From: Geosiphon pyriformis uo1
Taxonomy: Eukaryota > Fungi > Glomeromycota
Assembly: GCA_016748015.1 (NCBI GenBank)
Contig: JAAOMT010000129.1
Coordinates: forward strand, 248,001 to 312,000
DNA: 64,000 nucleotides
Reading direction: 5' to 3'
Position numbers and translations under genes: made by a program. Of this stretch, positions 3,393-62,604 are shown in pieces. Every line of letters begins with the position of its first letter. The stretch's first letter is position 1. The notes below the pieces were generated by a model that did no database searches, was not told the origin of the DNA, and saw only the letters and a list, made by a program, of their open reading frames with translations.

Positions 3393-4320
3393 TGTTACTC
3401 ATAGAATATAGGAAGTATATTATTATTAGCAAGTAGATATTAGCCAATTAGAAGTAGACGTAGTAAATGTGAAATTCCAGGATTCTTCTTAGAGGAATTG
3501 CAGGATTCCAGGAATTTCAGGATTCTCTGGCGAGGAATTACAGGATTCCAGAATTGCAGGATTCCTCTTATTAGGAATTGCAGGATTCCAGGAATTCCAG
3601 AATTCCTGTTGCAAGAAATTAAAGAATTAAGGAATCTCAAATATGTATATATAACAGTAGTATTAGAAGCAGAAAGAGGGAGAATCGACACCAGGAATCC
3701 TTAGCTTAGTTATCACAATCCTCAAATAAATAATTATTCATTATATCAAATTCATTCTTCACTATCAATACTTTATGTTGATAGTAACTGATACTTAATC
3801 ATACTGAAACAATAGCTCTTGATCATGGCTATTGATGGGATACTAACTTGTAAATTGCCTTGGCTTATTTCTTATTTTCTTTTTATCTTTTCTTTATTTT
3901 TTTTATTGTCTATTAACTTGATTAAAGAATTTACTCTTGGAGGACTTATGGAGGAATAAAACTTACTTAAACAATACTTACTCTTGGAGGACTTACAGAA
4001 AAATAAACTTGCTTAAACAATACTTACTCTTGAAGGACTTATGAAGGAACTGACATCAAAAAACAGCACTGGTATATACTTACAAAGAATATCGTACTAA
4101 GAGAATCATCAACCATTAAGCTGAGCAAGCTATTGACAAAACTACAGTTTCAGGAAACTACTGATAAACTGTTACCATTGAATTTCTGTCCATTATACAA
4201 AAAACTCAATTGGAAAACCTTCAGATAAAATACCTTTAGATTATTATCATCACTAATCACTTTGAGTACCAAGTTACAGGTTTGTTATTCATTCAACACC
4301 CCAAAGAATTACCTGTAATA
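3393..4320 (+). repeat. 5' LTR, family A (928 bp)
   Basis: Starts tgttactcatagaatatagg and ends cctgtaata, directly before the PBS. Homologous to 19757, 27532, 54085, 63270 and the inverted 17186-18171. Confidence 0.92.
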
Positions 4321-4322
4321 TT

Positions 4323-4339
4323 TGGTGCTCTCTGTGAAG
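4323..4339 (+). promoter_or_regulatory. Primer-binding site (TGGTGCTCTCTGTGA..), probably for elongator tRNA-Met
   Basis: TGG begins 2 nt after the LTR end; same motif at 6515 and 54934. The complement CCTCACAGAGAGCA-CCA resembles eukaryotic elongator tRNA-Met 3' ends. Confidence 0.75.
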
Positions 4340-4340
4340 T

Positions 4341-5528
4341 ATAATCCTACAGAGAATCAGTGCCAACAACACCATCCAAATGTGGCAGAATCAGAAATTA
4401 TAGGAGCCAACCACTTAGAATTCACAAAATTCTTGTTTCAACAATACAGCCAACAATTGGGATTAAACAATAATCACTATCCAGCCGAATCAGTTTTCAA
4501 CTATTACGTCAATGATAAAATCACAGACTGTTTAGAAGGAACCATTAATATCGAGTCAGCAAGAGAAAATTTCTATACAGAATTATTTTAACACACCAGC
4601 TTACCAAGAAATCACAGTTTTGCCCCAATCATTAGAGAAATTAATCAAACTATTGAAAGATACATGCAACAACAATTTCCCATTACCTACGCAGACAAAG
4701 GTAAAGGAAGAATACAAACACCAGCAGCAACACCAAAAAAAATACAGTTACCTAGTTGGAAAAAACACAAAGTAGAATCACCAACCACTCTATCATATTA
4801 CTACACACTTAGAAGTGCCATCAACATTTTATCAGCAGACATGTCCACATCAAATGCGACATCAACATTTGGAAGATTTCAGTTCCAAAGCAAACAACGG
4901 AAAGAAGACTTACTAGGACCATATAGTGCGTATTTTGAAGGATTAAATCACAATCTTCAACACCATCAGGAATTTGATCACCAATACTCCAACCAGATTT
5001 TGGAGCCGCTACTCCATGGGAATTATCAAAGAAAAAAGAGGAAAGAAGTAAAGATTAAGAATTCACTTACCAAAACCCGATCTCAGAAAACTCGGAATTT
5101 GGAACCCCGAATATTCAAACTTCATGAAATTCAAACATAGAAAATCCAGAAATTGAAACTCCAAATATTAGAACTCAGCAAAATCAAAACAATCAGAACC
5201 CCGATTTAATTAATCAGCCAAATGTACCTCCAAATATTGTCATCAATTATCCACCAATTGATTCGATAGTTGAACCCATTCAGCAGCCATTTCAACAACT
5301 GAATCCTCAAATCCAACAGCCACAAAGACCACCTCAGCAACCACCACTGCAACAACAACTAAATGTAAATCAAATGGTCTATGCACTTATCACCAAGTTA
5401 GAAAACTTTACTGGTGAAGAAGACAACACTCAAGCATGAATTAATGACGTTTCCAAGGCCATTATAGCAAACAATTGGGATGATGTCAGAGTCCTACAGG
5501 CAATCCCATATTTTCTCAAAGAAACTGC
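4341..5528 (+). pseudogene. A1 gag, 5' part (continues at 15479-16008 after the nested element B)
   Basis: Colinear with 54952-56110. The reading FLKET|ANSWY is restored across the B insertion and matches LKDTANSWY at 56101. Confidence 0.85.
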
Positions 5529-6512
5529 TATTACCAGACGAAATTAGAGATATTGTTTAGCATGAAATTACCCTTATAAATTTTATCATTAATTAGCATA
5601 TATTATCATTTCAAATTATCACTTATTACATTAGCAAAATGTTCAAAATTATCATTTAATTAATAACTCAATTTGTACATAACACAAATTTAACCTAAGT
5701 GTAATGATTAATTATGCAATACCCCGAAATATGTAACATTCAAAAGTTTGCCAAAATTTGTAAAAATTTGCCAAAATAATTGATAGTTCACTGAAATATC
5801 TAATAGTTCGCAGAAATAACTTGTAGTTTGCCGAAATATACTTTTAGTTTGTCGAAACCATAGTAAAGAAAATAGTTCAAGTTTATAGACTAGTACTACA
5901 ACAAGTTGTATAAAAGAAGAGCTTTTCTCTTCGAGAAAATATATCTTACTTCAGATTTAACAATTAGAATCATTCTTTATACACAAAAACAAAATAAATA
6001 TCAAATAAATTCGAAAAACCAAATTCTTTAAATTATTACACTTGGAAAATTCTTAAAACCCAATTAACATTTTGAAATTGATTAGCTACCAATTTCAATA
6101 AACTGTTAGTGACTTTAGGCCTGGATCAAAAACAATTTCCTTAACAGAATTCAATTTTCTTTTATATTTCTTTTATTTTTCTTTTCTTTTCTCATTACAA
6201 TTATTAGGGTAGCCTACAGATGAGATTTCTGTAGAAAAGTTGACTTTCACAGCAAAGTAACTACACATTTTTTTGTGAGCTTTCAGATGAACAATTCCTG
6301 AGAAAGAGTTGATATTTACTACAACATAACTACATAAAGCAACTGGCACAGAATTGGCCATTCCACTTATAAGCCCAGCAGTTCAAATTATAAGAGATAA
6401 TTTGAAGATAAAATTCAGTTATTGAAGGTTCAAACACTTTCCATAGTCATGAATTAACAGCACTACAACAAACATACAAGAGCTAAAAAGAGACCAAAAA
6501 CCTCCGGTAACA
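5529..6512 (+). repeat. 5' LTR, family B
   Basis: t(a/g)ttacca...ctccggtaaca; direct repeat of 14494-15478. Confidence 0.95.
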
Positions 6513-6557
6513 TTTGGTGCTCTCTCATAGAAACAACACAGCAAAAACAACTTCAAA

Positions 6558-8600
6558 GTGGTGACCACACCAGATGCAACAACTCTAGAGTATTACCAGT
6601 CAATTTACACCCACTGCAAGCAAAGATTTAACATTCCAGACGGAATTGAAGTTGTCAAGAAATCAGTATACCAATACATTAAAAACCGCATCAACAATTA
6701 TCTTTTTGGAAATTACAATATTTCAGAAGTTAGAAACAACCTTTACAATAATTTAGTACACTATTCACAGTTGGGAACTGAAGACCTTAACAGTGAAACA
6801 CTTGCCACTTACTTTCAAGAACTTAATTTTAACATTATCAAGTACTGTGAAGAAACATATCCAGTGCAGTCTCAATACTCTATTGATTTTGAATCAGAGA
6901 CAGAAACAAGCAACAAAGGCAAACAAAAATTGAAACAATATTCAAAAACCACTCCAAATACTCCAATACTACCAAAAACAACTGTCAAACACTTACAAAC
7001 ACCTGAACAAGAAACCAGTTTAAAACTTCCACTTACTATCACACTTTTTCCAGCTTTACTTGCACAAACACAAACACTTAATTCATTTTTAAATCGATTT
7101 GCAAGACTAGAAGATTTTATATTACCCAAAAGTCCCACCAGACAACAAGAACCCCTTCAAACTAGTTCCAATCTCCTTGACTTTCTAGCTGAAAATCAAA
7201 GTGAACACTCTGAGACAGCAGCAAACGAAGAAAATGACTCTGAAATATCTGAAGAAAAATCAATAAACAGGAAAAACGAAAAAAACAAAATGACAGCATA
7301 CATTGTAAAAATCTCTGAATTTAATGAAGAAGACATTGAGACCAGTCCCCAAGAATGGCTCGACCAAGTTACTAAAGCTGGAGATGCAAATGGATGAAAT
7401 GCTGCCAGAATGTTAAAAACAATTCCCTATTTTCTCAAAGAAACAGCAGACGAATGGTTCGAAAACTTGACCACCTCTTTTAATAACTGGACAGCTTTTA
7501 AAACTGCCTTCTTAGAACAATTCACCAATAACAACACCTCAATCACACTTCGAAATTGTTTTCGCAATATCAAACAAGAACCCTCCAAATTTGTCATAAC
7601 TTATATTGGGAAATTTAACAAACTTTTCAAACAAATTTGCCAACTTGAAATTAATAATAATTATTCTGATGCTCAAATCTTGAATCAATTTATCACTGGT
7701 TTAAAGGATAAACTGATTAAAAAAGTTCACCCACATGTCCCAGAAGATTTAAACTCTGTCATTCAGCATGCAAAGAGATATAAAATGGCCATGGAAGAAG
7801 CCAATTGTATAAAACTTGTGAACTTAGCCATTGGAGAGACCAGCTCAGCAGCTGAAAAAAAAATTGACCAACTCACAAAAAAAGTCAAAAACTATTTCAC
7901 CAACCAACAACAACAGCAATTCCAAAGATATCAACCACCCCAAAGATGGAATCAAAACAACTTCACATCATCCTCTAATAACCAGCCTCAGAATTGCCAT
8001 TACTGTGAAATTCCTGGCCACTGGAAAAGAGATTGCAGGAAGCTACAATGAGACCAACAGAATAGGAGTAATTAATGTTACCTTTTGCCACAACAATCTT
8101 ATTACCAACCACCACTACCACCAGCTTACTATCCACCAAGACCACAATATCAAACCAACTATTATCAATCTGCTCTACAGCCAATGCAACAACAGTATCA
8201 ACAACCCATTCAACATTACCAAATACCTGCTCAAAGATTGGTTCAACAAAACCAATTTGTATCACAAAACTGATTCGCAACAAACAACAACAGAATCAAC
8301 CTAAATAACCAATTAGTTCCCCAAAATTCAGCTCAACCAAGACCCAACCACTATCATACTCAACCTAGTTATTTTATGATGCCAGAAGAACAGGATTTTC
8401 ACCATACTGCACTCTTAGAAGGTAGAGCTGCAGCACAACAACAAAATTTTTCTCATAATCACACCACTATTCTACCAGCCAGAATTGCTGAAAATGTCAA
8501 TCTCTCTGATATCTTTCCTTTTGAGTTCGAAGCCAATGAATCACCATTTCTACTTAGCAATGCTACTACAAATGAACAAAAAGCAATCACAGCTATGTAT
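6558..8600 (+). pseudogene. Family B Gag (N-terminal helical domain, capsid, CCHC nucleocapsid, Q/P-rich tail)
   Basis: Retrotransposon-gag-like 'FLKETADEWF...FKTAFLEQF...IKQEPSKFVITYIGKF...QFITGL' and zinc knuckle 'CHYCEIPGHWKRDC'. Confidence 0.9.
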
Positions 8601-8970
8601 ACTGAAGCTGAAGTTAAAAGAAAAACAATCCGCTTAATCTTAAACAGTGAATCCGCCGAAAGTATTATTACTTACTAGTTGATGCAACAGTTAAAGAGAA
8701 ATGTTGACCGACCAGCTCAAACAGTAATTATCACTGCTGATGGCATGAAAAAGACTCCAGTAGGAGAAATTGACAATTTTCTATTCACTCTCAATGGAAT
8801 TACCATTCCAGTCAAAGTTCTTGTAATGGATGCTCTCCAGTATCAAGCCCTTGTTAGAAATGATTGGCTTTAAAAAACCAATGCTAATCTGAATTGGGAG
8901 ACACAAGAGTTAACAATCTTCTACCAAAAACAACATGTCCAGGTACCTGCCACTTGTGGTACATTTAACA
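8601..8970 (+). pseudogene. Family B aspartic protease
   Basis: 'LILNSESAESII' is a mutated LILDSGSAGSII (intact at 57358 in A3). Also 'TADG' flap and 'ALVRNDWL' (LLGxDWL). Confidence 0.85.
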
Positions 8971-9179
8971 AATGCTCTGAAAAAGCCCCAGCTTTTGAAT
9001 TCAAACTGGAAGAAGAAAAACCCATTATTGAAACATTTATGGCATTTGGATCAACCTCCAATTGGGCTGATGAAACTGAACAAGAACATTTTACTCCACA
9101 CTCTGAACCTGAAACCCCTGGATGAAATATCCCTTACTCAAAGCCTAAACTAAGGAAACGACACCCCTACATTCTCCTT

Positions 9180-9790
9180 AAATGCAAAGATTGCCACAAG
9201 AAACTTTCATCAATGGGAGCCTGCATTTCATCTGAAGAAGAATATGAAAATCATACTTGTTATTACTGCAAGGCTTGTCACAGAAAATGATGGGGCCACC
9301 TAATAAAAAGAAGTAGAAAATAGGACAACACCCTTTGTTTGACTTGTGGAGATATGCTACCAGAAGAATGCAATTGGATTGATGTAGTAATGAGAGGAGG
9401 AGTCTGCGATCAAACCTGCCAATATGCTTTATCAATTTCAGAAAAAGTCAAAAGAAGAACACCTTTTGATGCTGCTTACAATAGTGCCCTCAACAAACTG
9501 TACTATTATCCTCACAATACCAAAATGATTTTCGATTTAGCAATGGCTTTTAATCAATGGAGCCACTCAAGAAAATGTTTGTCAAATGAAGAAAACAGAA
9601 TACATTGAATATACCATGAAATTAGTTGGATTTGATTACAAAGATGAAGTAGAAGTTTACCACCAAATTGCAAGTCACACCTACTCAACCCAAGAAGCTC
9701 AAATTCAACAATTAGAGCAAATGAACATTAGGCTATGTGAAGAATGCATTATGTCTTGTGATGAACAGTGGTGTCCTGAATGCTATACTC
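9180..9790 (+). other. Cysteine-rich putative zinc-binding module inside Pol, between protease and dUTPase
   Basis: CKDC..KKLSSMGAC..YCKAC..CLTC..CDQTC..CEEC.MSC..WCPEC; Cys spacing is conserved in A3 at 58040-58655. Confidence 0.7.
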
Positions 9791-9909
9791 TTAGCATTCT
9801 CCTGCCCAGTGAAAATGATGAAAACAAAATTGAATTTGGAGAACCTAAAGCAACAGAAGAAATTGAAACAACACCCATCTATCTCATCAAAAATCAGCCT
9901 GCTTCACAA

Positions 9910-10338
9910 CTCAAATACTTTAACAACAATGGACAAGGAATAAAACCAGAAAAAGCACATGAAATTAATGCTGAATACGATCTACAATATTTAAAAAAAA
10001 ACACTTTGGTTCTTTAACCAAATTCTCTTACCAAAATCAATCTCAAAATTGCCCTCAAAATCCCACCAGGAGCAATGGTCCAAATTGTTTCACAATCATC
10101 ATTGGCAAACAAAAGAATTAATGTTAGAAGAGAAATCATAGATGCAGGATATACAGAAGACATTACAGTCATGTTACAAAATGAAATCAATAAACCTTTT
10201 CAGATTAAACATGCTGAAAAAATTGCTCAAGCTATTTATTTACCCTTAAGTAACATTTCGGGTTTACAATTAGTCAGTCAAAGAGAACAATTGGGAAAAA
10301 GTGGAAAAAGAACCAATGGTTTTGGTTCAACTAGATGA
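9910..10338 (+). pseudogene. Family B trimeric dUTPase domain
   Basis: All five motifs are recognisable despite G->A decay: AEYDL (AGYDL), SQSS (RSS), IIDAGYTEDI, KIAQ, RTNGFGST. Confidence 0.9.
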
Positions 10339-10799
10339 TTCACAGTTCCAGTAAACATAGCCCTTAATGAACAAAGTGAATCTCATCAGATTCTATGACT
10401 TCCACAACCAATTACTATTTTACCCTTTGGAGAACACCCTAAAATTTACACTTATAAAAAGCTAACAACCACACAACAAATTTTTGAGTCCAACAAACAA
10501 ATCTGCTCAGAACATAATATCTTGATCCCAAATATTTACATTCCAGAAGAAACAAAGAAAGTCCGAGTTACTTTTTACAATCCCAACAGTTACCCCATAG
10601 TTTTATTAAATAACTTAGAAATTAGAGTCATTCACAGTAACATCTTTCAACAAGAACTATTCCAAATAGTTTTCAATTTCTTGGAAATCATTGAATATTC
10701 ACTACCAAAAATCAACCCAAATCTCAGTTCTGAAAACTACCATGTTGTCATGGAAAAACTATCTCGAATCAACATGAGACAACTTGAATCACAACAACA

Positions 10800-12251
10800 G
10801 AACCAGTTTAAAGAGCTAATTGCAGAATTTGCTAATATCTTTGCTGAAAACAACAATGACTTAGAAAGAACTGATTTGGTTCAACACCAAATCTATACAG
10901 GAGATGCCAAACCAAGGCAACAACAAGCCTACCAAGTTGCTTTAGAAAGCCACCAATTTATCCAAAAAGAAGTACAACAGATGCTTAATAATGGGCTTAT
11001 TCAACCATTAATGAGTTCATGGGCCTCATCTGTGGTTTTAGTTAAAAAGAAAAATGGAAAGATATAATTTTGTGTTGATTATCAACAACTCAACAGTGTC
11101 ACTATTGGAGATGTCTACTCTTTTCCCTGAATTGATGACATGTTGGATGCCCTTGGGAAGTCCAAATACTTTTTGACATTAGATTTAGAGAGTGAATACT
11201 GGCAAGTTGCCATGGATTCCAAAGATCGTCCCAAAACAGCATTCACCACTCAAAAAGGAAATTACGAGTTCAACATAATGCCTTTTAGATTATGCAATGC
11301 ATCAGCAACATTCCAAAGACTCATGGATGTTGTTTATAAAGGCCTTCTTTGGAAATCAGTAGTTGTCTATCTTGATAATACTAATGTTTATTCACCATCT
11401 TTTGAATTACACTTAACACACCTTGGAAATCAGTAGTTGTCTATCTCAATAATACTGATGTTTATTCACCATCTTTTGAATTACACTTAACACACCTGCG
11501 AGAAGTTTTTTAACAATTATAAAAAGCAGGACTGAAACTGAACATTGAAAAATGCTACTTTAGAAAAATGAGTTTGGCCTTTCTTGGCCACATTGTGAGC
11601 AAAGATGGAATTAAACCAGATCTCAGAAAAATCAGCACTGTCAAGAACTTCAAGACTCCACAAAATATCACAGAATTGAGAAGATTTATTGGATTAGCTT
11701 CCTATTACTGAAAATTCATTAAAAAATTCTCAGAAATTGCAAAACTCTTCAACCAGTTTACTACTAAAAATGTTGAATACAAATGGACAGAAGAATACCA
11801 AAAAGCTTTTGAAATTCTCAAGAAAAAGCTGACAACAGCTCCAATTTTAGCCTATCCAGACTTCAGTAACTGATTTCGACTAGCTACAGACACTTCTTAC
11901 ACTGCCTTTGGTGTCATCTTATCACAATTAGATAACAACAGAAATGAGTGAGTAATCGCTTATACTAGCAGAACATTAAAACCAGCCAAGAAAAACTACT
12001 CTGCCACAGAACTAGAAACAGCAGCTGTAATTTGGGCCTTACACCACTTCAACTTTTATTTCAGACCTAAAGAATTTGATATTATCACTGATAATATTGG
12101 ACTCAAATGGCTTCAGAACAAAAACACCCAACTAAACGCAAAACAAACCCGATGAACAGGATTTTTAGCTAACTACCGATACATTGTACATCACAAACCA
12201 GGAAAACTCCACACCAATGTTGATTGTCTCTCAAGAATGAGACAAGATTAG
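10800..12251 (+). pseudogene. Family B reverse transcriptase and RNase H, ending at a stop at 12249-12251
   Basis: SSWASSVVLVKKK, FCVDY, LDLESEYWQV, KTAFTT, MPFRLCNASATFQRLMD, YLDN; RNase H LATDTS, NYSATELE, HKPGKLHTNVDCLSR. Confidence 0.93.
11349..11496 (+). repeat. 74-bp tandem duplication spanning the RT YxDD motif
   Basis: ttggaaatcagtagttgtctat...cacttaacacacc occurs at 11349-11422 and again at 11423-11496. Confidence 0.93.
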
Positions 12252-12297
12252 AACATAAAACCAACACTCATTTGAATTAACAACAAGACAACAAACA

Positions 12298-13683
12298 ATG
12301 AACTCTAAAAACTACAACAATCTTAAACAATATTTGGAGACATTAACAATCTCAACAGATTGGTCTGCAGATGAAAAACACTGATTACAACAACAAGCCA
12401 AACAATACTTCTTACACAACAACATGATTTATTATCGAAACTTCAGAAACCCAGACAATTTACTCAGATTAATACAAGAACATGAAAAAGAAACCATTTT
12501 ATATAACAATCACTCAGAGTCTTTATCAGCACACTTAGGAAAAGACAGCACTACACAGAGAACACTAGAATATTACTTTTGGCCTCAAATGAAAAAAGAC
12601 ATTCATGAATACATTAAGTCTTGTGATAGTTGTTAAAGAAGAGGAAGAACTCACCCTACAGAACCTTTAAACCCAATTAAAGTTGGACAGTCTTTTGACC
12701 AAGTTGGTATCGATTTAGTCAGACCACTATCTATTACAAACCAAGAAAACCATTATATTACAGTAGCTGTAGACTATCTTACCAAATGGCCTGAAGCCAG
12801 AGCCATTCAACAAGCAGATGCAAAATCAATAGCAAACTTCATCTATGAAGACATTATTTGTAGACATGAATGCCCAATAGAACTTTTATCTGATCAAAGA
12901 ACACATTTCGTGAACAATTTAATCCAGGAAATTTGTGGATGATTTAATATCAAGAGACCATTATCTTCACTTTACCATCCACAAACAAATGGACTTGTAG
13001 AATGTTTCAACAGAATATTGTATGAATTATTAGCCAAAGTCTTAACCAATTTTGAGCAAAAATGAGATCTCTTTATTCCATCAGTGTTATTAGCATATAG
13101 AACACTAAAACAAGATACTACAAAACACACACCATTTGATTTAACCTATGAAAGGACAGCAACATTACCAATTAGTTTCACAATGGAAACATATCTAATA
13201 CAACCAATTAATAAAGACAACTTTCAGAAAACACTACAACAAAAAGCCTACACTCTGCTTAGCACGTTGGAAGGAAAACGACGAATAGCAGCCACCCATA
13301 TTAAAAACTCCCAAGCTCAACAAAAAAAACAGCATGACAACAAATTGCTTCCAGTTACCAATGAATTTAAAATCGGAAACAAAGTTCTCTTATACAGAAC
13401 TAAAGCCAAAAAACAATGGAGTGGAAAATTTGAAAACAAATGAGATAGACCATTCTTTATCCATGAAGTCCTAGGCAATAGATTATACAAGCTAAGACTT
13501 GATGACAAAATCCTAGCAAAAGTTGCACATGGAGATTGTTTGAAACACTATAATTCCAAACACAATTCTGAACCATTAATTTCACAAATTGGTACACATT
13601 TCTTTTTAATTAATTCTGAAGATATTCACCAAAATTTAGAACTAATAGTTGTCATTGAACAACCTTCCAACTTGAACACTTAA
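12298..13683 (+). pseudogene. Family B integrase as a separate ORF (HHCC, DDE core, GPF/SH3-like C-terminus; no chromodomain)
   Basis: Own ATG 46 nt after the RNase H stop. HSESLSAHLG...YFWPQM...CDSC; GIDLV; SDQRTHF; YHPQTNGLVECFN; FKIGNKVLL..W.RPF. Confidence 0.9.
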
Positions 13684-13805
13684 CTTAAAATTATTATTAT
13701 AGTTATCTCCTTATAATTTAGAAACAATCTCACAAAAACAAAGCAAAAATAACATAAAAATCTATACACCAAAAATAATTTTCTTTTATTTTCAAATCTC
13801 TTATA

Positions 13806-14482
13806 ATGACTATTCCTCAAAACATTCAACAATTATCCCAAAAACTAATGTTAGCTTTAAAAACAATACCCGAATTATCCATTACTGTTACTGAAAACCA
13901 CATTAATTATACCCAAACAAAAGTAGTTACAAATTTAGTCCCAAATTCACGAAAATATTACTCATATAAGAAGAACACAAGAAGTTATTCTGAAATTCAT
14001 CTGCCAGAACTTTTAAAGCTTGCTTTAAGAGAAAACTTAATGCTCATTTCTATTAGTATTCTACCAAATGCTACTATTCAACAAAAACTTCAACTGTGTC
14101 TTAATGAAGAAAACTACAACTATACTCCAATATATAGATATTTCTACATTGGAAAAACACTTCACAAACGAAAACGGGAGCTTACAGCAGCAAATCTTAC
14201 AAAAAAAGCTATTCAGAAACAACTTCACAACAAATTCAAGACAACAGCTGGACCTACAAACAGTTATTATAAACTAAAAGCTGCTCTTAGACTTTATAAC
14301 CTATTCCACACCTGTAAAAACGTCCTACAAAACCCAATTTTACAGTTTTTGAAGATTCAATACATTAGAAAGCTCACAGAACTGAAATTTTAACAATTTT
14401 CAGACCAAATTTCTTTAATAATTTTGGATTATTATTTGGAAATTACAGACAGTATTTGGACTTTGACAGAGCTCAGTCTTGA
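13806..14482 (+). CDS. Family B ORF-X: unknown ~220-aa soluble protein between integrase and PPT (partly decayed)
   Basis: 195-aa open ORF plus a tail after a CAA->TAA-type stop. Homologous to family A ORF-X (YFYIGKTL vs YFHLGQHL; LQNPILQFLKIQYIRKL vs LLNPEIDFITVNQMRKI). Confidence 0.75.
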
Positions 14483-14493
14483 GAAGAAGGTTA

Positions 14494-15478
14494 TGTTACC
14501 AAACAAAATTAGAGATATTGTTTAGCATGAAATTACCCTTATAAATCTTATTATTAATTAGCATATATTATTGTTTTAAATTATCACTTATTACATTAGC
14601 AAAATGTCCGAAATTATCATTTAATTAATAACCCAATTTGTACATAACACAAATGTAACCTAAGTGTGATGATTAATCATACAATACCCCGAAATATATA
14701 ATATTCAAAAGTTTGCCAAAATTTGTAGAAATTTGCCGAAATAATTGATAGTTCACTGAAATATCTAATAGTTCACAGAAATAACTTGTAGTTTGCCAAA
14801 ATATACTTTTAGTTTGTCGAAACCATAGTAAAGAAAATAGTTCAAGTTTATAGACTAGTACTACAACAAGTTGTATAAAAGAAGAGCTTTTCTCTTCGAG
14901 AAAATATATCTTACTTCAGATTTAACAATTAGAATCATTCTTTACACACAAAAACAAAATAAATATCAAATAAATTCGAAAAACCAAATTTTTTAAATTA
15001 TTGCACTTGGAAAATTCTCAAAACCCAACTGACGTTTTGAAATTAATTAGCTACCAATTTCAATAAACTGTTAGTGACTCTAGGCTTGGATCAAAAACAA
15101 TTTCCTTGACAGAATTCAATTTTCTTTTACATTTCTTTTATTTTTATTTTTATTTTCTCATTACAATTATTAGAGTAGCCTACAGACAAGATTTCTGTAA
15201 AAGAGTTGACTTTTACAGCAAAGTAACTACACATTTTTTTGTGAGCTTTCAGATGAGCAATTTCTGGGAAAGAGTTGACATTTACTACAATGTAATTACA
15301 TAAAGCAACTGGCATGGAATTGGCCATTCCATTTATAAGCCCAGCAGTTCAAATTATAGGAGATAATTTGAAGATAAAATTCAGTTATTGGAGATTCAAA
15401 CACTTCCCATAGTCATGAATTAACAGCACTACAACAAACATATAAGAGCTAAAAAGAGACCAAAAACCTCCGGTAACA
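14494..15478 (+). repeat. 3' LTR, family B
   Basis: tgttaccaaac...ctccggtaaca, preceded by the PPT. Confidence 0.95.
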
Positions 15479-16646
15479 CCGCCAACTCTTGGTACCAGAG
15501 TTTAGCCACCAGACCACAAACATTCCAACAATTCAAAACTGCCTTTTTGGGATATTTTAGCAACAATAACAGTATTAATTGTCTAGCCAATACTTTCACC
15601 ACAATCAAACAGAATAATACTAAAGCAGTCATAATATACTTAGGATGCTTTCATAGAATCCTATGCCAAATTCAAGCCATCGACACCATGTATTTCACAG
15701 AACTCCAGATTCTCAACCAGTTTATTCATGGCCTGTGCAGTAGCATTTTGCAACACATATGCCCATTAACCCAGCCAACCTTCAAGCTGCAGTCACACAT
15801 GCCAGAGATTTCAAATCAGCTGAGCTAAAAGCCAACCACACTCAAGCTGTAAATTTAGTAATAAATAAATCATCTGATTTGGATTCCAAATTGAAGCAAA
15901 TCAGTAATACCATCAATCAGAAAATCAAGGGATACTTAGCTAACAACCAACAGTCCATTTATCAATCTCCCTAAAGACACAGTAATCAGGAAAACTACAA
16001 TTGTTCCCGTATCAAAATAGATCCAGACAAGATAGAGATTATTAAGAACTTTCCAGTACCAAATAATCTCACAGAATTAAGAGCATTCTTGGAATTTGTG
16101 GGATACTACTACCACTTTATCAAGAACTTTTCCAAAATAATCCAACCACTACACCAACTTCAAACAAAAAACATTAAATATAAATAGACTGAAACTTAAC
16201 AAGAAGCTTTTGATATATTGAAAAGAAAGCTTATTCAAGCCCTAATACTGATTTATCCAAATTATAGCAAGCCATTCATAATCACAACCAATACATTTGG
16301 TCAAGCATTGGGAGCAGTACTATCACAGAAAAGAACAGATGGAAGAGAGCATCCAATAGCTTACACCAGTAGAAGCTTAAATCCAGCTGAAAAGAACTAT
16401 AGAACTCCAGTACTGGAACACTTAGCTATCTATTGGGCTGTCATCAAATGGAAAGAATACTTGAGTTAGAAGTTTGACATATATACTGATTACAAAGAAT
16501 TGACTTTAATCCAGAAACAAAAATTTAGAGACAATTGTTATGTCAGATAGAAAATTGAACTTTTATTATTTAATTATACAGTACATTATAAAAAAGGAAA
16601 AAAAAATGAAAATGCCGATAAATTGTTGTGAATAAGACAAATCTAA
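15479..16646 (+). pseudogene. A1 gag remainder (15479-16008) fused directly to the RT C-terminus and RNase H (16009-16646)
   Basis: Gag 'QILNQFIHGL...AVTHARDFKSAEL' jumps at 16008/16009 to 'IKIDPDKIEIIKNFPVPNNLTELRAFL', then RNase H 'ITTNTFGQALGAVLSQ..EHPIAYTSRSLNPAEKNY'. Confidence 0.88.
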
Positions 16647-16676
16647 AAATATTCCAACCCAAAAATATAACAAAAC

Positions 16677-19043
16677 ATAAATATACAAAAATACCAACAA
16701 CTCCAATATTATATAAATACCCAATTGTTTAAGGAGAAATTATCTCAAAAGAAACAAAGAAACATAAAACAACAATCAAAATATTTTGTTAACCATCAAA
16801 ATATACTTTACTGGAAGAACAGAAAAAATTTAGATCAATTAACCAGAGTAATCACAAAATCAGAAAAAGAGACAATATTATTTAACATGCATCCAGATCC
16901 AACAGCAGAATATTTTCATAAAAAAGCAACCATAGAAAGAACCAGAAAAAGATATTATTGGCCATCAATATATTCAGACATCATTCAATATGTTCAAAAT
17001 TGTGATGCTCATCAGAGAAGAGAAGAAACAAAACTCAATGAACCACTAAGACCAATTAAAGTAAGACAACTGTTTGATTGCATTAGAATTGATTTAGTTG
17101 AACCATTAATAATAACTAGCAGAGACAACAAATACATTGCAGTAGTCATGGATTATCTTATTAAATGGCCAAAAGCAAAAGCCATTGTTACAGATGATTA
17201 TTTAGGGTCTCAAATCAAATAACAAACTCATAACTTGGTGTTTAATTAATATAATGTTGTTGATAATATCTAAAAGTGTTGTTTTATCTGAAGATTTTGT
17301 TGTGGAGTTTTTTGTATAATAGACAAAGATTCACTATGGTTGGTTTTGGTTGATTTCTCAAGTCATTTTCCCAATTTCTGTCTTCAACATGATGGCTGGT
17401 TTAATTTGGCAGTTATGCCCTTTTGGTAAGCTATCCATTAATATATATAATTCTACTCTTATTTCTGGTCTTTTACCAGACTATTTTTGACATCAATTAC
17501 TCAGTGTTTAATTTCTTTAATCAGTAGTAAGTCAACAAACAAAAGAAAATAAAATAAAAGAAAATAAAATAAAAAGAAAATAAGAAATTAGAAATAAGCC
17601 AAGGCAATTCAAGTTAGTATCCTGTCAATAGCCATGATCAAAAGCTATTGTTCCAGTGTGGTTAAGTGTTGGATTTTATTAACATGAAGTGTTGATAAAT
17701 AGAAGAGTGATTATATTTTCAAACAAATGACAATAACATAAATTTGAAGAATTGGAGAGATCTTTTATTTATATAATTCCATTTTGGTTAATAGCAACTA
17801 TCTTTAAAATGAGAGTTAATAAATAGAGAAGAAAGGAGATTGTTCTAAATTAATAAAACTCTATTGAATTCTCCTGGAATTACTTTTTCTGCTTTTAACA
17901 CTCTCGCTATATATATATAATTTATGTTATACGAAATTCTGCACATTCATGAGCAATGTACCATAATTTCTTAAGCAATACTTATATTGCTGAGCAATGT
18001 GCCTGTAATTTCTGACAATGTGCTTATTGCTGAACAATATGCCATGATTCTCTGATAATGCTTCACATTGTTGAGCAATGTGCTCATGTGCTAAATATTA
18101 TTTTTTTATTGGTCTATTTTTTCTATCTGTTTTTCCTACTATTTTCTTGTATTTTTTTTCTATGAGTAACACCATTTAAAAAGCAAATGCAGAATCTATT
18201 GCCAAATTCATTCATTAAAATTTGATCTGTCGACATGGATGTCCAAAAGAACTACTATCAGATCAAGGAACTTACTTTGTAAATAGAACATTGGCAGAAT
18301 TAAGTCAAAGATTTGGGATAAAAAGACTATTATTATCACCATACCACCCATAAACAAATGGGCTAATTGAAAGATTTAACAAAACATTGTGTGAAGCAAT
18401 TGCCAAGATCAGCCAAAAAAACCAGGACAAATGGAATTTGATTATATCAACAATATTATTTGCTTATCAAACAATGAAGCAAGACCCTATACAAGCAACA
18501 CTATTTGAATTAATATACAGTAGAACAGCAACATTACCAGTTGAGATAGAAGTCAAGACATATTCAACAGAACTAATAACAGAAGAGAATTTTCAAAGCA
18601 TATTGTTAAGAAGAACATATGATTTAATAGAGACATTAGAAAACACATGGTAAAAAGCAGCTGACAACATCCAAAAGTCACAAGAAAAACAAAAAGAAAA
18701 ACATGATAACCAACTACCAAAGAAACCAGTTGAATTCAAGATTGGAAACAAAGTACTTTTACATCATACCAAAGTGGAAAAACAATGGAGTAGAAAATTT
18801 GACCCCAAATGGGACAGACCATTTCACATAGAAGAAATTCTTGGAAATAGAGCTTATAAATTAAGATAGAACAACAAAATCTTAGCCAAAACAACATATA
18901 GTAATTGACTGAAACCATATTACTATATAGTGTTACCATCCACCAGTAATATTCCACAATTAGAAGTACAAAAAATACTAGTCCAACCAGATAAGATTCC
19001 ATGAGATCTGAAACCAATCATAATCATCAGACCAAACACATAA
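16677..19043 (+). pseudogene. A1 integrase (separate ORF), split by the inverted solo LTR
   Basis: H..H..RYYWP..CDA; IDLV; DYLIKWPKAKAI | SDQGTYF; YHP*TNGLIERFNKTL; stop at 19041-19043. Confidence 0.88.
17186..18171 (-). repeat. Solo LTR (family-A-related subfamily), inverted, TSD ccat
   Basis: The reverse complement starts tgttactcatag and ends ctgtaaca. It is flanked by ccat at 17182-17185 and 18172-18175, and shares the caatagc..gctattg/TACTAAC block with family A LTRs. Confidence 0.93.
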
Positions 19044-19082
19044 ATTTGAACAATAAAAAAAGGATATAAAGACATAATAGAT

Positions 19083-19742
19083 GTGACAGAAGACTTCAGA
19101 AAAATGGAAATCACTGATAACATCTACTCACTAGCACAACAAATCTTCCAACTGATTCAACAACAGAGTATGGAAATTACTATCAATCAACAAACCATTC
19201 AATACCAAGATACCAGAAAGATATTCAAATACAAAAGTCAAAGAAAAACAGAAAACACTATTGACAAAATGGTTCTAAAAATAAAATTGGCAATAGAAGA
19301 ACCAACAAGTGTTACCATATATCAAGAATTGACCAAAGAAACGTGAAAATGGTGAATATACAAATTTCCGAGAAACTTTTGCTATTTTCACTTGGGACAA
19401 CACTTAAATATTTAGAACTTATACACAGATAAAACAAAATGATTATTTAACACAACAATACTACAACAACTGGAACAATTTGTGGAAAAGAACAATCTAA
19501 TAACACAAGCAAAAGCCATCTATCAATTGCATACTGGATTTTAAGACAGACTGGAAATTTTACTTAATCCGGAAATAGACTTTATTACAGTTAACCAAAT
19601 GAGAAAAATAATCAACACCCAATTTGAAGAATTACAGAACAAAATAACTCAAGTAATTCTCGAAAAAGAAGTTCAAGAAATACTCAAAGACAGAAAATTA
19701 GAGTTAGAAAATGTGGGAGATCTTGATGGAGCTCAATATTAA
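19083..19742 (+). pseudogene. A1 ORF-X (~219 codons, in one frame with several TGA/TAA/TAG lesions)
   Basis: MEITDNIYSLAQQIFQLIQQQSMEITINQQTIQY...FCYFHLGQHL...DLDGAQY*; colinear with 62605-63255. Confidence 0.78.
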
Positions 19743-19756
19743 AAAGAAGAAAATAA

Positions 19757-20541
19757 TGTTACTTATAGAATATAGGAAGTATATATTAGCATAAATTAGC
19801 CAATCAGAAATAACCATTGTAAATGTGAAATTGCAGAATTCCAGAAATTTTAGGATTCTTGTACAAAGAATTGCAGGATTCCAGAATTTCTGGTGTGAGG
19901 AATTGAGAAATCAAGAAATCTCAATTATATATATATAGCAGTAGTATTAGAAAGAAAAAAGGCAGGATCTTTTAGTTAGAGATCTCTTAATTTAGATTTG
20001 ATCTAAGCAACCTTCCATATTACAAATATCAATAAACATCTATTTGTTATCTTAATCCATGCTCCACTATTGGCACTATATGTTGATAGTAATTGATACT
20101 TAACCATACTAAAACAATAGCTCTTGATCATGGCTATTGACAAGATACTAACTTGTAAATACCTTGGCTTATCTCTTTTCTTTATTTTTTTATTTTTCTT
20201 CTTTTTTTTTATTGTGTGTACTAATTGATTAAGGATTAAAGCACTGAATTATTGACATCAAGGATTGCCTGGTAAAAGACCTCTGCAAGTAAGTAGAGCA
20301 TATACAAGAATTATAAATTACTTACCAGAGGATTGCCGGCCATCAAGCCAAGAAAAAAATTGATGAAATTGCGATTCTGGAAGATTATTAAAAACAACTA
20401 TTGAATCTTTGTCCATTATACAAAGAACTCAACCAAAACTTTCAGATATAAACCACCCTTAGTAATCAACATCATTATATCAATTGAGCACCAAGTTATG
20501 AGTTTGTTATTTACCAGAGACATCAATAATCACTTATAACA
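19757..20541 (+). repeat. 3' LTR, family A (785 bp)
   Basis: tgttacttatagaatatagg...cacttataaca, preceded by the purine tract aaaaagaagaaaa. Confidence 0.9.
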
Positions 20542-54084: not shown

Positions 54085-54931
54085 GGTTACTCATAAAATA
54101 TAAGACATATATTAACATATAAATTAGCCAATCAGAAGTAGCCATAGTAAATGTGAATTCCAGGATTCTTCTCAAAAGAATTACAGGATTCCAGGAATTT
54201 CAGAATTCTTGTACAAGAAATTGCAAGATTTCAGAATTCCAGAATTCTTCTCAAAGGAATTGCAGAATTCCAGGAATCACAGGATTCTTGGTGTGAAGAA
54301 TTAAGGAATTAAGGAATCTCAATTATGTATATATATCAGTAGTATTAGAAGAAAAAAAGACAGATCTCTCAGTTTAGATTTAATTTAAGCAACTTTTTAC
54401 ATTACAAATATCAATAAATAATTATTCACTATTTTAATCTACTCTCTACTATCAACACTTTATGTTGATAGTAATTAATACTTAATCACACTAAAACAAT
54501 AGCTCTTGATTATAACTATTAATGAGATACTAACATTTATCACTTTGGCTTATTTTTTTATTTCCTTTATTGTTATTTTCTTTTGTTATTTTTTTTTGTT
54601 GTTTACTAATTGATTAAGGATTAAGTGCTAAATTATTGACATTAAGGATTGCTTGGTAAAAAACCCCTGTGAGTGAATAGAGCACATAAAAGAATTACAG
54701 ATTACTTACCAGAAGAGTACTGGCTATCAAGCTGAAAAAAAAAATTGACCAAATTGCAATTCTGGGAAGCTATAAATAAACAACTATTGAATTTCTGTTC
54801 ATTATACAAAGGACTCAACCAAAATCTTTAGATAACAATACCTTCAGATCACTATCATTGCAAATAGCTTCTGAACACCAAGTTATGGGTTTTGTTATTT
54901 GATTTGAGACTCTAAATAATCACTTGTAACA
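54085..54931 (+). repeat. 5' LTR of A3
   Basis: (g)gttactcataaaatataag...cacttgtaaca, then tt-TGGTGCT; repeat of 63270-64000. Confidence 0.92.
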
Positions 54932-54951
54932 TTTGGTGCTTTCTGTAAGGT

Positions 54952-57900
54952 ATAATCTTACAGAGAACTAGCATCAACAACAATCATTCAAAAGTGGCAG
55001 AATCAGAAATCATAGGAGCAAACCATTTAGAATTTGCCAAATCCTTGTTTCAACAGTACAGCCAACAGTTAGAATTAAACAATAACCATTTCCCAGCAAA
55101 ATTAGCCTTCAACTTTTACATTAATGATAAAATTACAAACTGCTTAAGAAAAACAGTTAACATTGAATCCACAAGAAAAAATTTCTATACAGAATTGTTT
55201 CAACATACCAGCTTACCAAGAAACTACAGTTTCACATCAATCATCAGAGAAATCAATCAAACTATTGAAAGGTACACCCAACAACAATTCCCTATTACCT
55301 ACATAGACAAAGACAAAAGAAGATTGCAAACACCAGTGGTAAATTCCAAAAAGATACAACCACTCATTTGAAAGAAAACCAGAGTTGAATCACCAACCAA
55401 TCTATCATACCATTATATACCAGAAAGTGTCATTAATATCTCCTTAGCAGACATGTTCACATCAAATGCAACATCAATCTTTGGATAATTCTCATTTCAA
55501 AGTAAACAAAAAAGAGCAGAATTATTAGGACCATATGGTGAATATTTTGAAGGATTTAAATTGCAATTACCAATACCATTAGGATTTTAATTACCACTTT
55601 TTCAACCAAATTTCGAAACTGCAAGTCTGTAGAAAGTAATGGAATTAAAAAAAAAAGAAAGTAAGAATCAGGAATTTACTTACCAAAACCTGATTCTAGA
55701 AAATGCAGAAGTTAAAACCCCAAACATTCAAATCCAGCAAACTCAAAACAATTCAAACTTCAAAACAATTAATCAGCAAAACTTATCTCTAGTAATTGTC
55801 ATTGATCAGCCACCAATTGAACCAATTATTGAACCAATTCAACAGCAGCCATCTTAGCAACCTATTCAACAATCATTTCAACCATCTCAACAACCACAAC
55901 AACCACTTCAACAGCTACAACAACAACTTTAACTACTATTACCACAACAACAACAATAAATGGCATATACACCAATTGCAAAGCTGAAAAAATTTTCTGG
56001 TGAAAAGGATGATGCCCAAGCATGGATCAATGACATTACCAAAGCCATCACCGCCAATAACTAGGATAATACCAGGACAATGCAAGTCATCCCATATTTT
56101 CTCAAGGATACTGCTAACTCATGGTATTATAGCTTAGTCCAGAAACCCCAAAACTTTGATGCATTCAAATTAGAATTCCTAAGATACTTCAGTAATAATA
56201 ACAGCATCAACCATCTAACAAGTACCTTTATCATCATAAAGTAAGAGAACACAGAAACAGTCACTACTTACTTAAGATGCTTCCACAGGAATCTGTGTCA
56301 GATCCAAGCCATCAATGCCAATTATTTTATGGTAGCACAGATCCTAAATCAGTTCATTTGCAGATTACACAGCAGCATCTTACAACACATATGACCAATG
56401 CATTCAGCTATTCTGCAAGATACAGTTACACACACCAGAGATTTCAAGTCAGCTAAGTTAGAGGCCAATCATGCCCAAGCTGTAAATTTAGTAATAAATA
56501 GATCATCTGACTTAGATTTCAAGCTAAAACACTTTAGCAATTCAATCAATCAGAAAATTGAGGAATACTTAGCTGACAATTACACAATTTATCAATTATC
56601 ACAATAATGCAATAATTTAGGAAATGTGAATCATTTCAAAAATTAGTTGCATCCATCATTATTATCCAATCAGCCATGGCAGCCAGAGATACAAGTCTGC
56701 CACAACTGTGGTAAACAAGATCATATTAGAGCTAACTGCCATTCTTATAGTAATTCATAATCAGGAAATCAATACCAAAACTCTGATCACAGAGTTCAAA
56801 CTCCGAATTATTACTCAAATTAAGACCAATATTAGCCAACTTATTTGTCAATAATGCAGTAGTCAATATATCAACTACAGCCACAAGTAATATATTAACT
56901 GCAGCCACCAATAATTTATCAACCTTAACAACTTTAAACACCACCCCAAAATTCCATCCAGATGACATTAGGAAACTCCAGATCCAGAGTCGTCTAAAAC
57001 TAGAGATCAGCAATAATGGTTTACCAACCAATCTTCAGTTCATCAAATTACTTATCAGGATCATGCCAGTAGAATTCGGAAGCTGAATACACCCAAAACC
57101 CGAATTTTCAGAACTATTTAAGTCTCTTGGTTACCCCAGAAGATGTCCCATCCAACAATCAGAAAACTAATCACACTCCAACACCTACTAACAATATTTC
57201 ACCAGCTATTATTACTGAGAATGAATTACTAGACACCATCTTCCCATTTGAACTCAAGGAACTGTTAGTCATGCCATTATTTAGTGGAGCCACTCTTGAA
57301 AAAAAACCTATTACTGTCATGTATACTGATGCCAAAGTTAATAGCCACTTTATCAAACTGATCTTAGACAGTGGATCAGCTGGCAGCATTATCACAAGAC
57401 AACTCATGGACCAATTAAGTTACCAAATTAATTAAGCTGCCAGCACATGAATTATCATGGCTGATGGAATGACCAAAACTTCAATCAGCGAGATTAATGA
57501 CTTTCCTATAGAAATCAATAGCATCATTGTGCTAATCAAGATATTAGTCATGAAAGCCACTCAATACTAAGCACTTGTTGGTAACAATTGGCTGTTCAAA
57601 ACCAACACAATGCTTAATTGAAACATGCAGAAGCTTTAACTGAGTTAGAATGGTTGACACACATACATACCAGTCATGTGTGGCCATTTTAAGACCACCA
57701 ACACACCAGCACTACTCATTAAGTTCGAGGAAGAAGAGAAAAAACCTATCTGGAAAGCCTATCAAGTGTTATAGGCTGACAACAACCACAATAAACTACT
57801 GTCAATACTCTCTTAGAATAACAATAAAAAAGAAAAACAAAAGGAAAAACTTACCTAAAATGCTGATCAAGCCTGGAAAACTGACAATAACCCAGACAAA

Positions 57901-60900
57901 TTATCAACTTGGGAGTGGAAAAAAACTGACAAGGAAAAAAAAAAAAAGAAGAAGAAACAACACTCACCAGCACTACCATTTATAATTCTTACACCTACAC
58001 TACATCACAACAATCCACTTATCGCCAATCAAAGCTCATATGTATTAATTGCAACAAGAAATTGTTGTCAATAAGCGCATGCTGTGACAATGATGAGGAA
58101 TACCACATAGCAACAAAATTTTACTGTTACCCATGCATCATAGAACATTTTAGATGACCAAAATAGCAAGAAAAAAAGGACAACAAACCATGTCTTACAT
58201 GTAGAATTATTTTGCCTGATGAAAGAATGTGGAATGATATTCCTGGGTGTGGAGAAATATGCAATAAAACATACCAGTATACAATCCTAATCAATGACTG
58301 GGTATATAAGGGAATACCAATCAACAATGTCTAGAAACAAGTATTGTAACAATTAAAAAGATATTTCTATAATGAACATGAAATATGAAGAATAGTGAGT
58401 GTGAAAGTAGAAGATGTGACAATCAGCAAACTACTGGATATTAAAAACAATCTCTTATCACTTTTGAAATCTGAATACATCTTAACTTTTGACATTTTTG
58501 ATGACATTGAAGACAATCCTAAGCAATTTTATGAGCACTACCAAAACTTAGTGCCAACCAGAGAAAAGCAAGAACAGCATTTAGTCCAACTAAACACTTG
58601 ATTATGTAACCATTGTTTGATTTTTTGTGACTTCCAATATTGTAATGAGTGTGACTTTATTTACAATCCACTATTATGCATAATCTACACAATTCCAGAG
58701 GAAAAAAAACCAATTAGCAGCTGCATATCAGAATTGGAATCAATTTACAATCCCAATTCAAACTCTGACAATGATGATAACAAAAACAACAGTTCCAGCT
58801 CTGCTAATATGACAAGAAAAATAATAGTGATTCAGACTTCAATTCAAACTCTGAAATCTACATCACACTTTCTGATCTTTCCAAGGAACAGGAACTCAGA
58901 TGATATAGTAATAACAATGAAAACATCATGTCAGAATGTGCACATAATACAAATGCAGAGTTTAATCTAAGGTATTCAGAAAAAGACACCATCAAATTAG
59001 AACCATACTTATGCATCTGCATTGATCTCAAAATAGCACTGGAAATTTTAGCAACAACAATAATTCAACTAGCATTTAGAAATAGTTTAGTGGAAAAAAA
59101 AATCAACATCAAAGGAGAAATAATTGATACAGAATATATAGGAAACATCATTGCAATGCTACAGAATGACTCTGAAAAGGCCTATATCATAGAGCCAAAT
59201 AAAAAGATAGCACAGACAATATTTCTATTTCTGGTGAAAATAGCTCAGTTAGTGTTAGTGGAAAACAGAAAAAAATTAGGGATTATGGCTAGAGGGATAC
59301 AGGATTTTAGATCCATGAGTAAAATAGTTGTACCAATTAATATGGCAAAGAAAGAAATTGTTGACAAGAAAGAAATTATCTCCATCTGTTAAACAATTTC
59401 CATTCCACCATATGACCAATACATGGTAACCATAGAAAGAAAAGTAAAGGATCAGATACAGATTTTTAAGACAGAAGCAACACTTTGTAAATCAGGAAAA
59501 ATTGGATTAGTCAATCTACACATACTAGCCAAAAACTACAGGCACATCAAAATTTCTATTTACAATAACATGGGAGATATCATTGAGATACCAGAAAAAA
59601 CTATTATTGAATATTTAACCACTAAAATTGAAAACCAACTGCCAACCACCATTTCAGATTTTTCACAACTGTGTAGATATGTAGATATCACATCACAAAT
59701 AATATATGAACGAGAAAAATGTTATCTGTTCCAACTAAAACAATTGGAACAGATAAACTTGAGAAATCTAGACTCACTATAATGTATGCAACTTAAGATG
59801 TTACTCAATAACTTCAATGACATTTTTGCCAGTGAAAACAAATTTGGCAGAACTGATATCATCCAGCATCAGATCAAGACTAAAGATGCAATGCCAATTA
59901 AACAAAAAGCATACAAAGTACTATCAGCCAGCCATGAGATTATTCATCAAGAAATCAATTAGATGCTTGACAACAGGCTAATTCAGCCATCAATGAACTT
60001 ATAATCATTATCAGTAGTACTAGTCCATAAGAAAAATAGAAAAATCCACTTTTGTGTAGATTACCAGAAACTGAATAGAGTAACAAAAAGGGATAATTAC
60101 CTAACTTTGAAGATTCAAAAATTGTTTGATGCTTTTAGAAGAAAGAAATGATTTTCAACTTTAGACTTAGATAGTAGTTATTGGTAAGCAGCCATGAAAC
60201 TGGAAGACAAAGAAAAAATGACTTTTACAACTCAGAAAAAAAATTTCAAATTAAAGTGATGCCATTTGACTTAATGAATGCTCTTGCCATATTTTAATGA
60301 CTCATGGAAATTGTCTATATTAAATTACTATAAAAATCAATAGTCATATACTTGGATAACACCAATGTGTTCTTAAAAACATTTGATGATCATCTGTATT
60401 ATCTCCAACAAGTATTTAAAAGACTAAAAAGAGCTGAATTAAAATTAAATACAATTAAGTGTTTCTTTGGAAAAACTGAACTCAAGTTTCTAAGACATGT
60501 TATAAGCAAAAATAGTATCAAAATGAATCCAGACAAGATTGAGATAGTCAAAAACTTTTTAGTATCAACCAACTTAACTGAACTAAGAGCATTCTTGGGA
60601 TTTGCTGAATACTATTGCCACTTTATCAAAGATTTTTTTAAACTGGCTCAGCTATTACACCAGCTCTAATTAAAAAACACCAAATATAAATAGACAAAAA
60701 ACCACCAAGAAGCTTTCAACATATTAAGAAGAAAGCTTATTTAAGTCCCAGTATTGATATATCCAGATTACAGCAAACCATTCATCATTACTACTAATGC
60801 ATTAGGCCAAGCATTGGGAGCAGTACTATTGCAGAGAAAACTGGATGGAAGAAAACATCCAGTAGCATATGTCAGCCAAAGTTTGAGTCCAGTGAAAAAG

Positions 60901-61152: not shown

Positions 61153-61186
61153 AAAACATTTTCAACCCAAAAATATAACAAAAAAA

Positions 61187-62563: not shown

Positions 62564-62604
62564 AATTAAACAACCAAAAAAGAGTATATAAAGACACAGT
62601 ATAC

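Follow-up and report, generated by a model that had tools for sequence, protein, structure and literature searches.

The window analysed here is a stretch of 64,000 nucleotides from the fungus Geosiphon pyriformis (contig JAAOMT010000129.1) that holds long terminal repeat (LTR) retrotransposons of two families, element B and the family-A copies A1 and A3. In both families the integrase (IN) has an open reading frame (ORF) of its own behind the stop of the Pol polyprotein, and a further conserved gene, ORF-X, follows it. Elements B and A are dead and probably belong to a Ty3/Gypsy group with split integrase, in which reinitiation of translation is the leading candidate mechanism for making the enzyme. 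The separate integrase is the defining oddity, and it characterises a group that reaches far beyond these two families. As a rule integrase reaches the particle attached to the end of Pol, and the protease (PR) then cuts it free. Where a successful lineage has a separate gene for it, production, dosage, and delivery must be achieved in some other way.

The layout is common to the two families, as a sequence-only reading of this DNA had proposed. All domains of B and A3 are homologous and collinear, with 24–48% identity (48% for IN), and the Pol stop is homologous in B, A3, and A1, where it lies 4–5 codons past an ADxLSR motif in all three. The same reading had placed Gag and PR in one frame, a Cys-rich module and a five-motif dUTPase between PR and reverse transcriptase (RT), and IN on its own ATG after a Pol that ends with RNase H (RH); the coordinates bear this out. 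One frame comprises Gag, PR, the Cys module, dUTPase, RT, and RH. In B it runs from 6558 to about 9548 through the capsid, CCHC knuckle, protease, and Cys module, in that order. Its breaks are copy-specific: a T run has gained 1 nt (~9548), and 73 bp are duplicated (~11420–11490); past the insertion the frame covers dUTPase and RT, and past the duplication RH up to the TAG. The gap between stop and IN start is 46 nt in B, 34 nt in A3, and 30 nt in A1, whose ATA at 16677 is a decayed IN start. Spacer lengths differ, and relative to Pol the IN frame is +1 in B and A3 and in frame in A1. With stops read as X, Pfam matches in B are Retrotrans_gag (1.8e-11), dUTPase (2e-12), RVT_1 (2e-16), RT_RNaseH_2 (8.5e-33), Integrase_H2C2 (1.7e-16), and rve (3e-8). 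In an alignment of 25 related INs, Met1 and Tyr6 are at least 90% conserved. No chromodomain was found in the IN of B or A3 (Pfam, E 0.05), and the protein ends soon after its SH3-like domain.

All copies in the window (B, A1, and A3) are dead, killed by mutation. The polyprotein and IN frames of B contain 25 premature stops, its observed/expected (o/e) CpG ratio is 0.20, and transitions make up 54 of the 56 substitutions between its two LTRs. The catalytic Asp has become Asn in both PR and RT; Pfam leaves the B protease unmatched (catalytic Asp is Asn; motif 8634), and that of A3 matches gag-asp_proteas. A constraint test on the IN of A1 and A3 was not significant, with too few transversions. 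Among contigs of run X1 at the junction (n = 1775), the best 40 of 47 rows show no variant of the stop or the ATG, and neighbouring sites vary. In 28 X1 contigs divergence sets in right past the stop.

Intact relatives have the same arrangement. A search with the B RT-RH among proteins of at least 455 aa gave 188 matches. Among the best 120 of these, the first five as well as P0127, P0128, and P0132 (all in the top twelve) end 5–13 residues past the RH end motif, and most of the others continue into IN. One cluster of RH-ending proteins contains a protein of Cetraspora pellucida. A scan of metagenome contigs yielded 80 loci, of which 12 lack the RH end and 16 fall in the tree group of the window copies. 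IN is visible in nine of these 16 and unfused in all nine. Outside the group 37 loci are fused, six are unfused (including L060, with its own ATG), and nine have no visible IN, so that 37 of 43 are fused. Locus L003 is nearly complete and intact. Its Gag has 889 aa, Pol lies in another frame and ends at RH, IN has 426 aa, and the 3′ genes are a 266-aa ORF and then a 195-aa ORF-X-like gene. Stand-alone INs have equal length across independent assemblies, and none is longer among the cluster members listed. The sequences indicate that the split is real and not decay, with integrase outside the Pol frame, because intact relatives without premature stops have it too and because it lies at the same position in two families.

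In the nine intact relatives, IN starts at offsets of −1 (TAATG, in L003), −4 (ATGA, in L012), −8, −8 (ATGGATAA), +5, +62, +110, and +163 from the stop, and in one locus past an extra 155-aa ORF. Stop and start thus overlap in four of nine, in the forms TAATG, ATGA, and ATGnnTAA. The spacers of B, A3, L007, L010, and L062 contain no AUG.

The trees agree with a common history. In a FastTree analysis of 176 RT-RH sequences, B, A3, and 25 others, none of them fused, form one clade (SH-like 0.99). In the best maximum-likelihood tree of a 66-sequence RT-RH set, the 24 chosen members stand together (SH-aLRT 89.1/aBayes 0.99). The IN tree unites all ten split INs (95.2/1), L060 included. One origin of the split integrase is likely from these trees. 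The group is nested among fused-Pol elements in the RT-RH trees, whose rows are mostly without clade names.

ORF-X is the second constant feature of the two families. The sequence-only reading had noted an ORF of about 220 aa in the env position; the ORF is conserved and not Env-like. Intact copies of the B family have an ORF-X of 239 aa, which runs into the 3′ LTR. The B protein has 161 matches (E ≤ 0.001), of which the best 120 are all G. pyriformis proteins with 57–89% identity. The A and B proteins are homologous end to end at 26% identity (hhalign probability 83%, E 9e-6; 63% for A1). Constraint on ORF-X is borderline between A1 and A3 (p = 0.045) and not significant between B and A3 (p = 0.054). 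A profile search against 1.84 billion representatives gave 34 matches, including the metagenomic P0317 and P0318. The 3′ ORFs of L003, L005, L007, and L010 are clearly inter-related (L010 weakly), and by sequence they are probably related to Geosiphon ORF-X. Homologues are confined to split-IN loci among the 147 loci searched.

Pfam has no family for ORF-X, and Foldseek searches of PDB and BFVD were negative at E 0.001. None of eight ORF-X proteins of 147–239 aa has a membrane segment (maximum 19-residue hydropathy 0.48–1.43). Two AlphaFold models (pLDDT 73 and 85) both show a helix-hairpin followed by a helical bundle; they are not independent, because their alignments overlap. The best VIA Z values, 5.1 and 4.9, show neither a known nor a new fold. 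ORF-X is predicted from these models to be a soluble helical protein. An Env or membrane glycoprotein is ruled out by the low hydropathy, the size, and the predicted fold. Between IN and ORF-X there are 7–16 AUGs in L003 and L005, contrary to scanning, so ORF-X probably needs an RNA of its own.

Neither the dUTPase nor the Cys module is obligatory within the group. The Cys module consists of four CxxC-type pairs, a helical stretch, and CxxC-x3-C-x4-CxxC; it is predicted to bind zinc, has no informative Pfam match, and was seen only in Geosiphon-type sequences. Coding constraint between B and A3 is significant for both the Cys module (p = 0.0007) and the dUTPase (p = 0.006). All five dUTPase motifs are recognisable in B. 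The enzyme was part of the layout that the sequence-only reading called unusual, yet it is absent from most split-integrase members. Of the 80 loci only L002 has it, with an RT nearest to those of the split group, and the best 120 of the 188 RT-RH proteins all lack it. A dUTPase between PR and RT has already been described in fungal Gypsy elements (PMC2864245).

The start of Gag is unusual in the Geosiphon copies. The first 244 Gag codons of B contain no in-frame ATG, and a GTG stands at the equivalent position in B, A1, and A3 (window 6558, 4382, and 54994). Between A1 and A3, codons 1–120 of Gag show significant constraint (p = 0.006); constraint on the Gag N-terminus is not significant over the whole region (p = 0.59) or between B and A3 (p = 0.22). 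A GUG start for Gag is possible on these sequences. Alternatively, the ATA at codon 7 of family A could be a decayed ATG start.

Under the proposed mechanism, the Gag-to-RNase H polyprotein would be cleaved by the protease, and the dUTPase would exclude uracil from the cDNA. Ribosomes would end at the Pol stop and restart on the same RNA at the IN ATG. Integrase, not carried in by Gag-Pol, might reach the cDNA by binding RNA, RT, or the cDNA ends. ORF-X would be an accessory protein, soluble and conserved, for which a separate (spliced) RNA is the likely source. Coupled termination-reinitiation, as formulated elsewhere, covers UAAUG, AUGA, and AUGnnUAA junctions, and LINE-1 is reported to reinitiate across 63 nt (PMC5972666). 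On balance, analogy favours termination-reinitiation for IN, because the overlaps fit the described forms and the longer spacers are mostly free of AUG, like that of LINE-1. ORF-X might, tentatively, regulate the expression of its own element, for example by helping reinitiation or transcription. A fuller picture is doubtful: an old and so far undescribed Gypsy lineage, at home in mycorrhizal fungi and their relatives, whose polycistronic genome would comprise one polyprotein, a stop-restart IN without Gag-Pol delivery, a non-AUG Gag (in Geosiphon), and a clade-wide ORF-X as a TAV-like translational transactivator with a new fold. If true, this would be the first LTR retrotransposon having a free integrase plus its own reinitiation factor.

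Subgenomic or spliced RNA is the source of Pol in foamy viruses and of third ORFs of the env type. IN could likewise have a subgenomic RNA to itself, spliced or initiated internally, the closeness of stop and start just marking an evolutionary cut site in Pol; this is a less probable source, though a serious one. The spacer range of −8 to +201 nt, the T-rich tract ending in TAG in the L007 spacer, and the rotifer ORF3s described as products of spliced messages (PMC5408684) speak for it. The exact overlap forms at four of nine intact junctions, the lack of AUG in most spacers, and the lack of a pyrimidine tract in the spacers of B and A3 speak against it. Recoding, by which a frameshift or stop readthrough would join IN to RH in some molecules and give a normal Pol, is improbable. 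It would suit the +1 IN frame of both B and A3, the in-frame A1, and IN frames that are open upstream in some loci (34 codons in L005), but frames and stop codons vary among members and IN Met1 is conserved. The IN frame also meets a stop within 0–12 codons upstream in B, L003, L012, and L007, and L007, P0133, and L050 add 235–314 aa past RH before the stop. That the split is a decay artefact of dead copies, produced by C-to-T/G-to-A mutation and slippage, is highly improbable. The premature stops and the CpG depletion of B would allow it, since CAG and CAA can become TAG and TAA, but two families whose INs are only 48% identical are split at the same position, and the intact split loci L003, L005, L007, and L010 contradict it. 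A different role for ORF-X, as a packaging adaptor or chaperone that takes free integrase into the particle instead of regulating expression, seems unlikely. A free IN needs an entry route, and the restriction of ORF-X to split-IN loci among the 147 searched is in line with such a role, but ORF-X is undetected in L062.

Several observations weigh against a single split-integrase group that reinitiates. The 24 members that stand together in the best tree reach an SH-aLRT of 70.9 in a fast IQ-TREE run on the 66 sequences, and the group is exact in 11 and near-exact in 16 of 23 bootstrap trees. L060 and L073 are also split, yet lie outside the group by RT-RH, and L060 is inside by IN. Geosiphon ORF-X has a weak link (35% hhalign probability, E 4e-4) to that of L003, L005, L007, and L010. 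The link was recovered at E 0.012–0.02 by one of three profiles without Geosiphon sequences, with a reciprocal E of 0.43. In L062 ORF-X was not detected. Just one relative has a host with a name, Cetraspora pellucida. Run X1 is perhaps the window's own sample, and a second alignment of its contigs is insensitive near their ends. As regards reinitiation, the window gaps of 30–46 nt exceed classic coupled overlaps, UGGGA (TURBS motif 1) was not found in the 100 nt upstream of any of 14 stops, and the 201-nt spacer of L017 contains an AUG.

Additional features surround the junction in the relatives. L014 (1608–2075) and L017 (3926–4287) have an additional small ORF that separates Pol from IN, and the stop of the one in L014 abuts the IN ATG. 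In L060 (3485–3495) and L073 (1815–1834) a stop and then an in-frame ATG precede IN, and a pair of long ORFs overlap each other at the 3′ end of L060. The Gag and Pol frames of L002 (540–575) and L003 (3130–3147) differ, with a TTTAAAC slippery-like site, and the window families have a single frame. L007 (3496–4441) and the C-terminus of P0133 comprise 235–314 aa after RH with a common Cys/His cluster, before the stop and a separate IN; Pfam gives no match for this extension. In L050 (1384–2257), a member of the split group, Pol extends past RH by a P-loop domain. The thymidylate-kinase match of this domain is weak (E 3e-4) and fails the cut-off, a weak sequence hint of a second dTTP-pathway enzyme in the group. 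With the RH end freed, members seem to have been able to gain domains at this place, such as the Cys/His cluster and the thymidylate-kinase-like domain.

Features of element B and the family-A copies, in window coordinates
Feature	Position	Strand	Remarks
Left target-site duplication CTGC	5525..5528	+	partner CCGC at 15479-15482; 4 bp, differing by one transition
Element B 5′ LTR	5529..6512	+	begins TA instead of TG, CA at end; 94.3% identity to 3′ LTR
Primer-binding site TGGTGCTCTCTC	6515..6526	+	TTTGGTGC likewise 3′ of the LTR in A1, A3, L003, L007
Gag N-terminal extension	6558..7289	+	E 1e-9 in comparison with A3
Capsid domain and CCHC zinc knuckle (7995)	7290..8040	+	Pfam Retrotrans_gag, Ty3_capsid, zf-CCHC
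Aspartic protease, in the Gag frame	8580..8960	+	catalytic Asp to Asn; 46% to A3 protease
Cys-rich module	9183..9783	+	kept in A3 (36% and 33%)
dUTPase, five motifs	9946..10332	+	Pfam E 2e-12; motifs located 9970-10332
Reverse transcriptase and RNase H	10897..12248	+	Pfam RVT_1, RT_RNaseH; 73-bp duplication near 11420-11490
Polyprotein stop TAG	12249..12251	+	4 codons past VDCLSR; homologous stop in A1, A3, relatives
A/C-rich spacer without AUG, 46 nt	12252..12297	+	between Pol stop and IN ATG
Stand-alone integrase ORF, 461 aa	12298..13683	+	ATG 12298; HHCC, DDE, SH3-like; Pfam
ORF-X, 239 codons	13806..14525	+	ATG 13806; one premature stop; ends within 3′ LTR; 161 homologues
GAGCTCA motif and polypurine tract	14465..14490	+	same motif 5′ of the tract in A1, A3, L003, L005
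Element B 3′ LTR	14494..15478	+	pair of 5′ LTR
Family-A copy A1, host of B	3393..20541	+	PR-RT deleted; inverted solo LTR splits IN
A1 downstream features		+	RH stop TAA 16644-46; IN ATA 16677; ORF-X from 19104; 3′ LTR 19757-20541
Family-A copy A3	54085..64000	+	LTR ~54085-54931; Gag GTG 54994; 3′ LTR from 63270; truncated by window end
A3 downstream genes		+	RH stop TAA 61150-52; IN ATG 61187, to 62563; ORF-X 62626 to ~63255; collinear with B

Element B is nested in the gag of A1, which picks up again after 15478. The LTRs of A and B had been called unrelated, and mostly they are, apart from one common segment of about 40 bp (E 4e-7). GAGCTCA lies directly 5′ of the polypurine tract (PPT) across families with unrelated LTRs (window 14465–14490, 19730–19756, and 63235–63269; L003:9190; L005:5476). 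On the minus strand, about 22000–27400 is a decayed non-LTR retrotransposon-like element, with endonuclease-, RT-, and RNase H-like motifs seen in the translation. It is akin to the plus-strand 550–3300 and is interrupted by a family-A solo LTR (27534–28388). A fungal Tra1/TRRAP host gene (34969–44939) with long exons and a normal CpG o/e of 0.83 stands beside the heavily deaminated repeats. Scores of hypothetical genes in the G. pyriformis annotation are ORF-X copies, and recognising ORF-X cleans the gene catalogues of mycorrhizal fungi. LTR elements reportedly cover 41% of this genome (PMC11952901).

Among known systems, Ty3/Gypsy (Metaviridae, e.g., yeast Ty3) shares with these families the TG..CA LTRs, primer-binding site, PPT, 4-bp target-site duplication, PR-RT-RH-IN order, and Ty3-like capsid. 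The RT of Ty3 is the best solved-structure match with 462 bits, versus 303 for 8R0S ('enzymatic polyprotein', cauliflower mosaic virus) and 203 for Pr125Pol of foamy type. Chromoviruses are ruled out by the lack of a chromodomain at the IN C-terminus. The likeness to complex retroviruses proposed by the sequence-only reading falls away, as the RT is Ty3-like and not retroviral: there is a single Gypsy-type RNase H, no tether and second RNase H, and retroviral RTs score far lower. Lokiretroviruses and Odin differ in having a dual RNase H and IN inside Pol (PMC7947760, PMC9040795), and the idea that they have a separate IN is not borne out there. Troyka has a 3-bp duplication and CG..CG termini (PMC12440569), versus 4 bp and TG..CA in B.

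Fungal Gypsy elements with dUTPase (PosPlaTy3-5, Phanerochaete elements, and Tuber Tmt1; PMC2864245) also carry it between PR and RT, and a further ORF without known function occurs in some of them; the same position is found in rotifer and planarian elements (PMC5408684, PMC6431247). As described in the available text of these three papers, such elements have one or two ORFs and IN in Pol, with no separate IN or Cys module. The available text of PMC3248453, PMC5911963, PMC4427930, and bioRxiv 2021.03.30.436303 contains nothing on a separate integrase. In the literature searched, which did not extend to Repbase, GyDB, or most subscription journals, nothing was found that describes an LTR retrotransposon whose integrase has its own ORF. 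The earlier suggestion of an undescribed lineage stands to that extent; the group is wider than two families, and its dUTPase position was known already.

Overlap junctions, present in four of nine relatives, resemble those of victoriviruses, hypoviruses, influenza B, caliciviruses, SART1, and LINE-1, and the window spacers are AUG-free like that of LINE-1 (PMC5972666). The likeness is one of sequence; the split group has no upstream UGGGA, and the reinitiation systems in the available text of that paper include no LTR retrotransposon. In Caulimoviridae Pol likewise ends without integrase, and their TAV-aided polycistronic translation (PMC5972666) is a model for ORF-X. In contrast, they have neither IN nor LTRs and are just 28–32% identical in RT-RH. 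Membership in or sisterhood to Caulimoviridae is ruled out by the presence of IN and LTRs, by the RT-RH distance, and by the bootstrap trees, in which caulimovirid-like genomes are sister to the group in 0 of 23. Unlike canonical Ty3/Gypsy, B and A have IN outside Pol, Gag to RNase H in one frame (in these two families), a conserved third ORF, and no chromodomain. By RT and domain order they are Ty3/Gypsy elements, yet of a variant organisation, because IN is not the C-terminal part of the Pol polyprotein.

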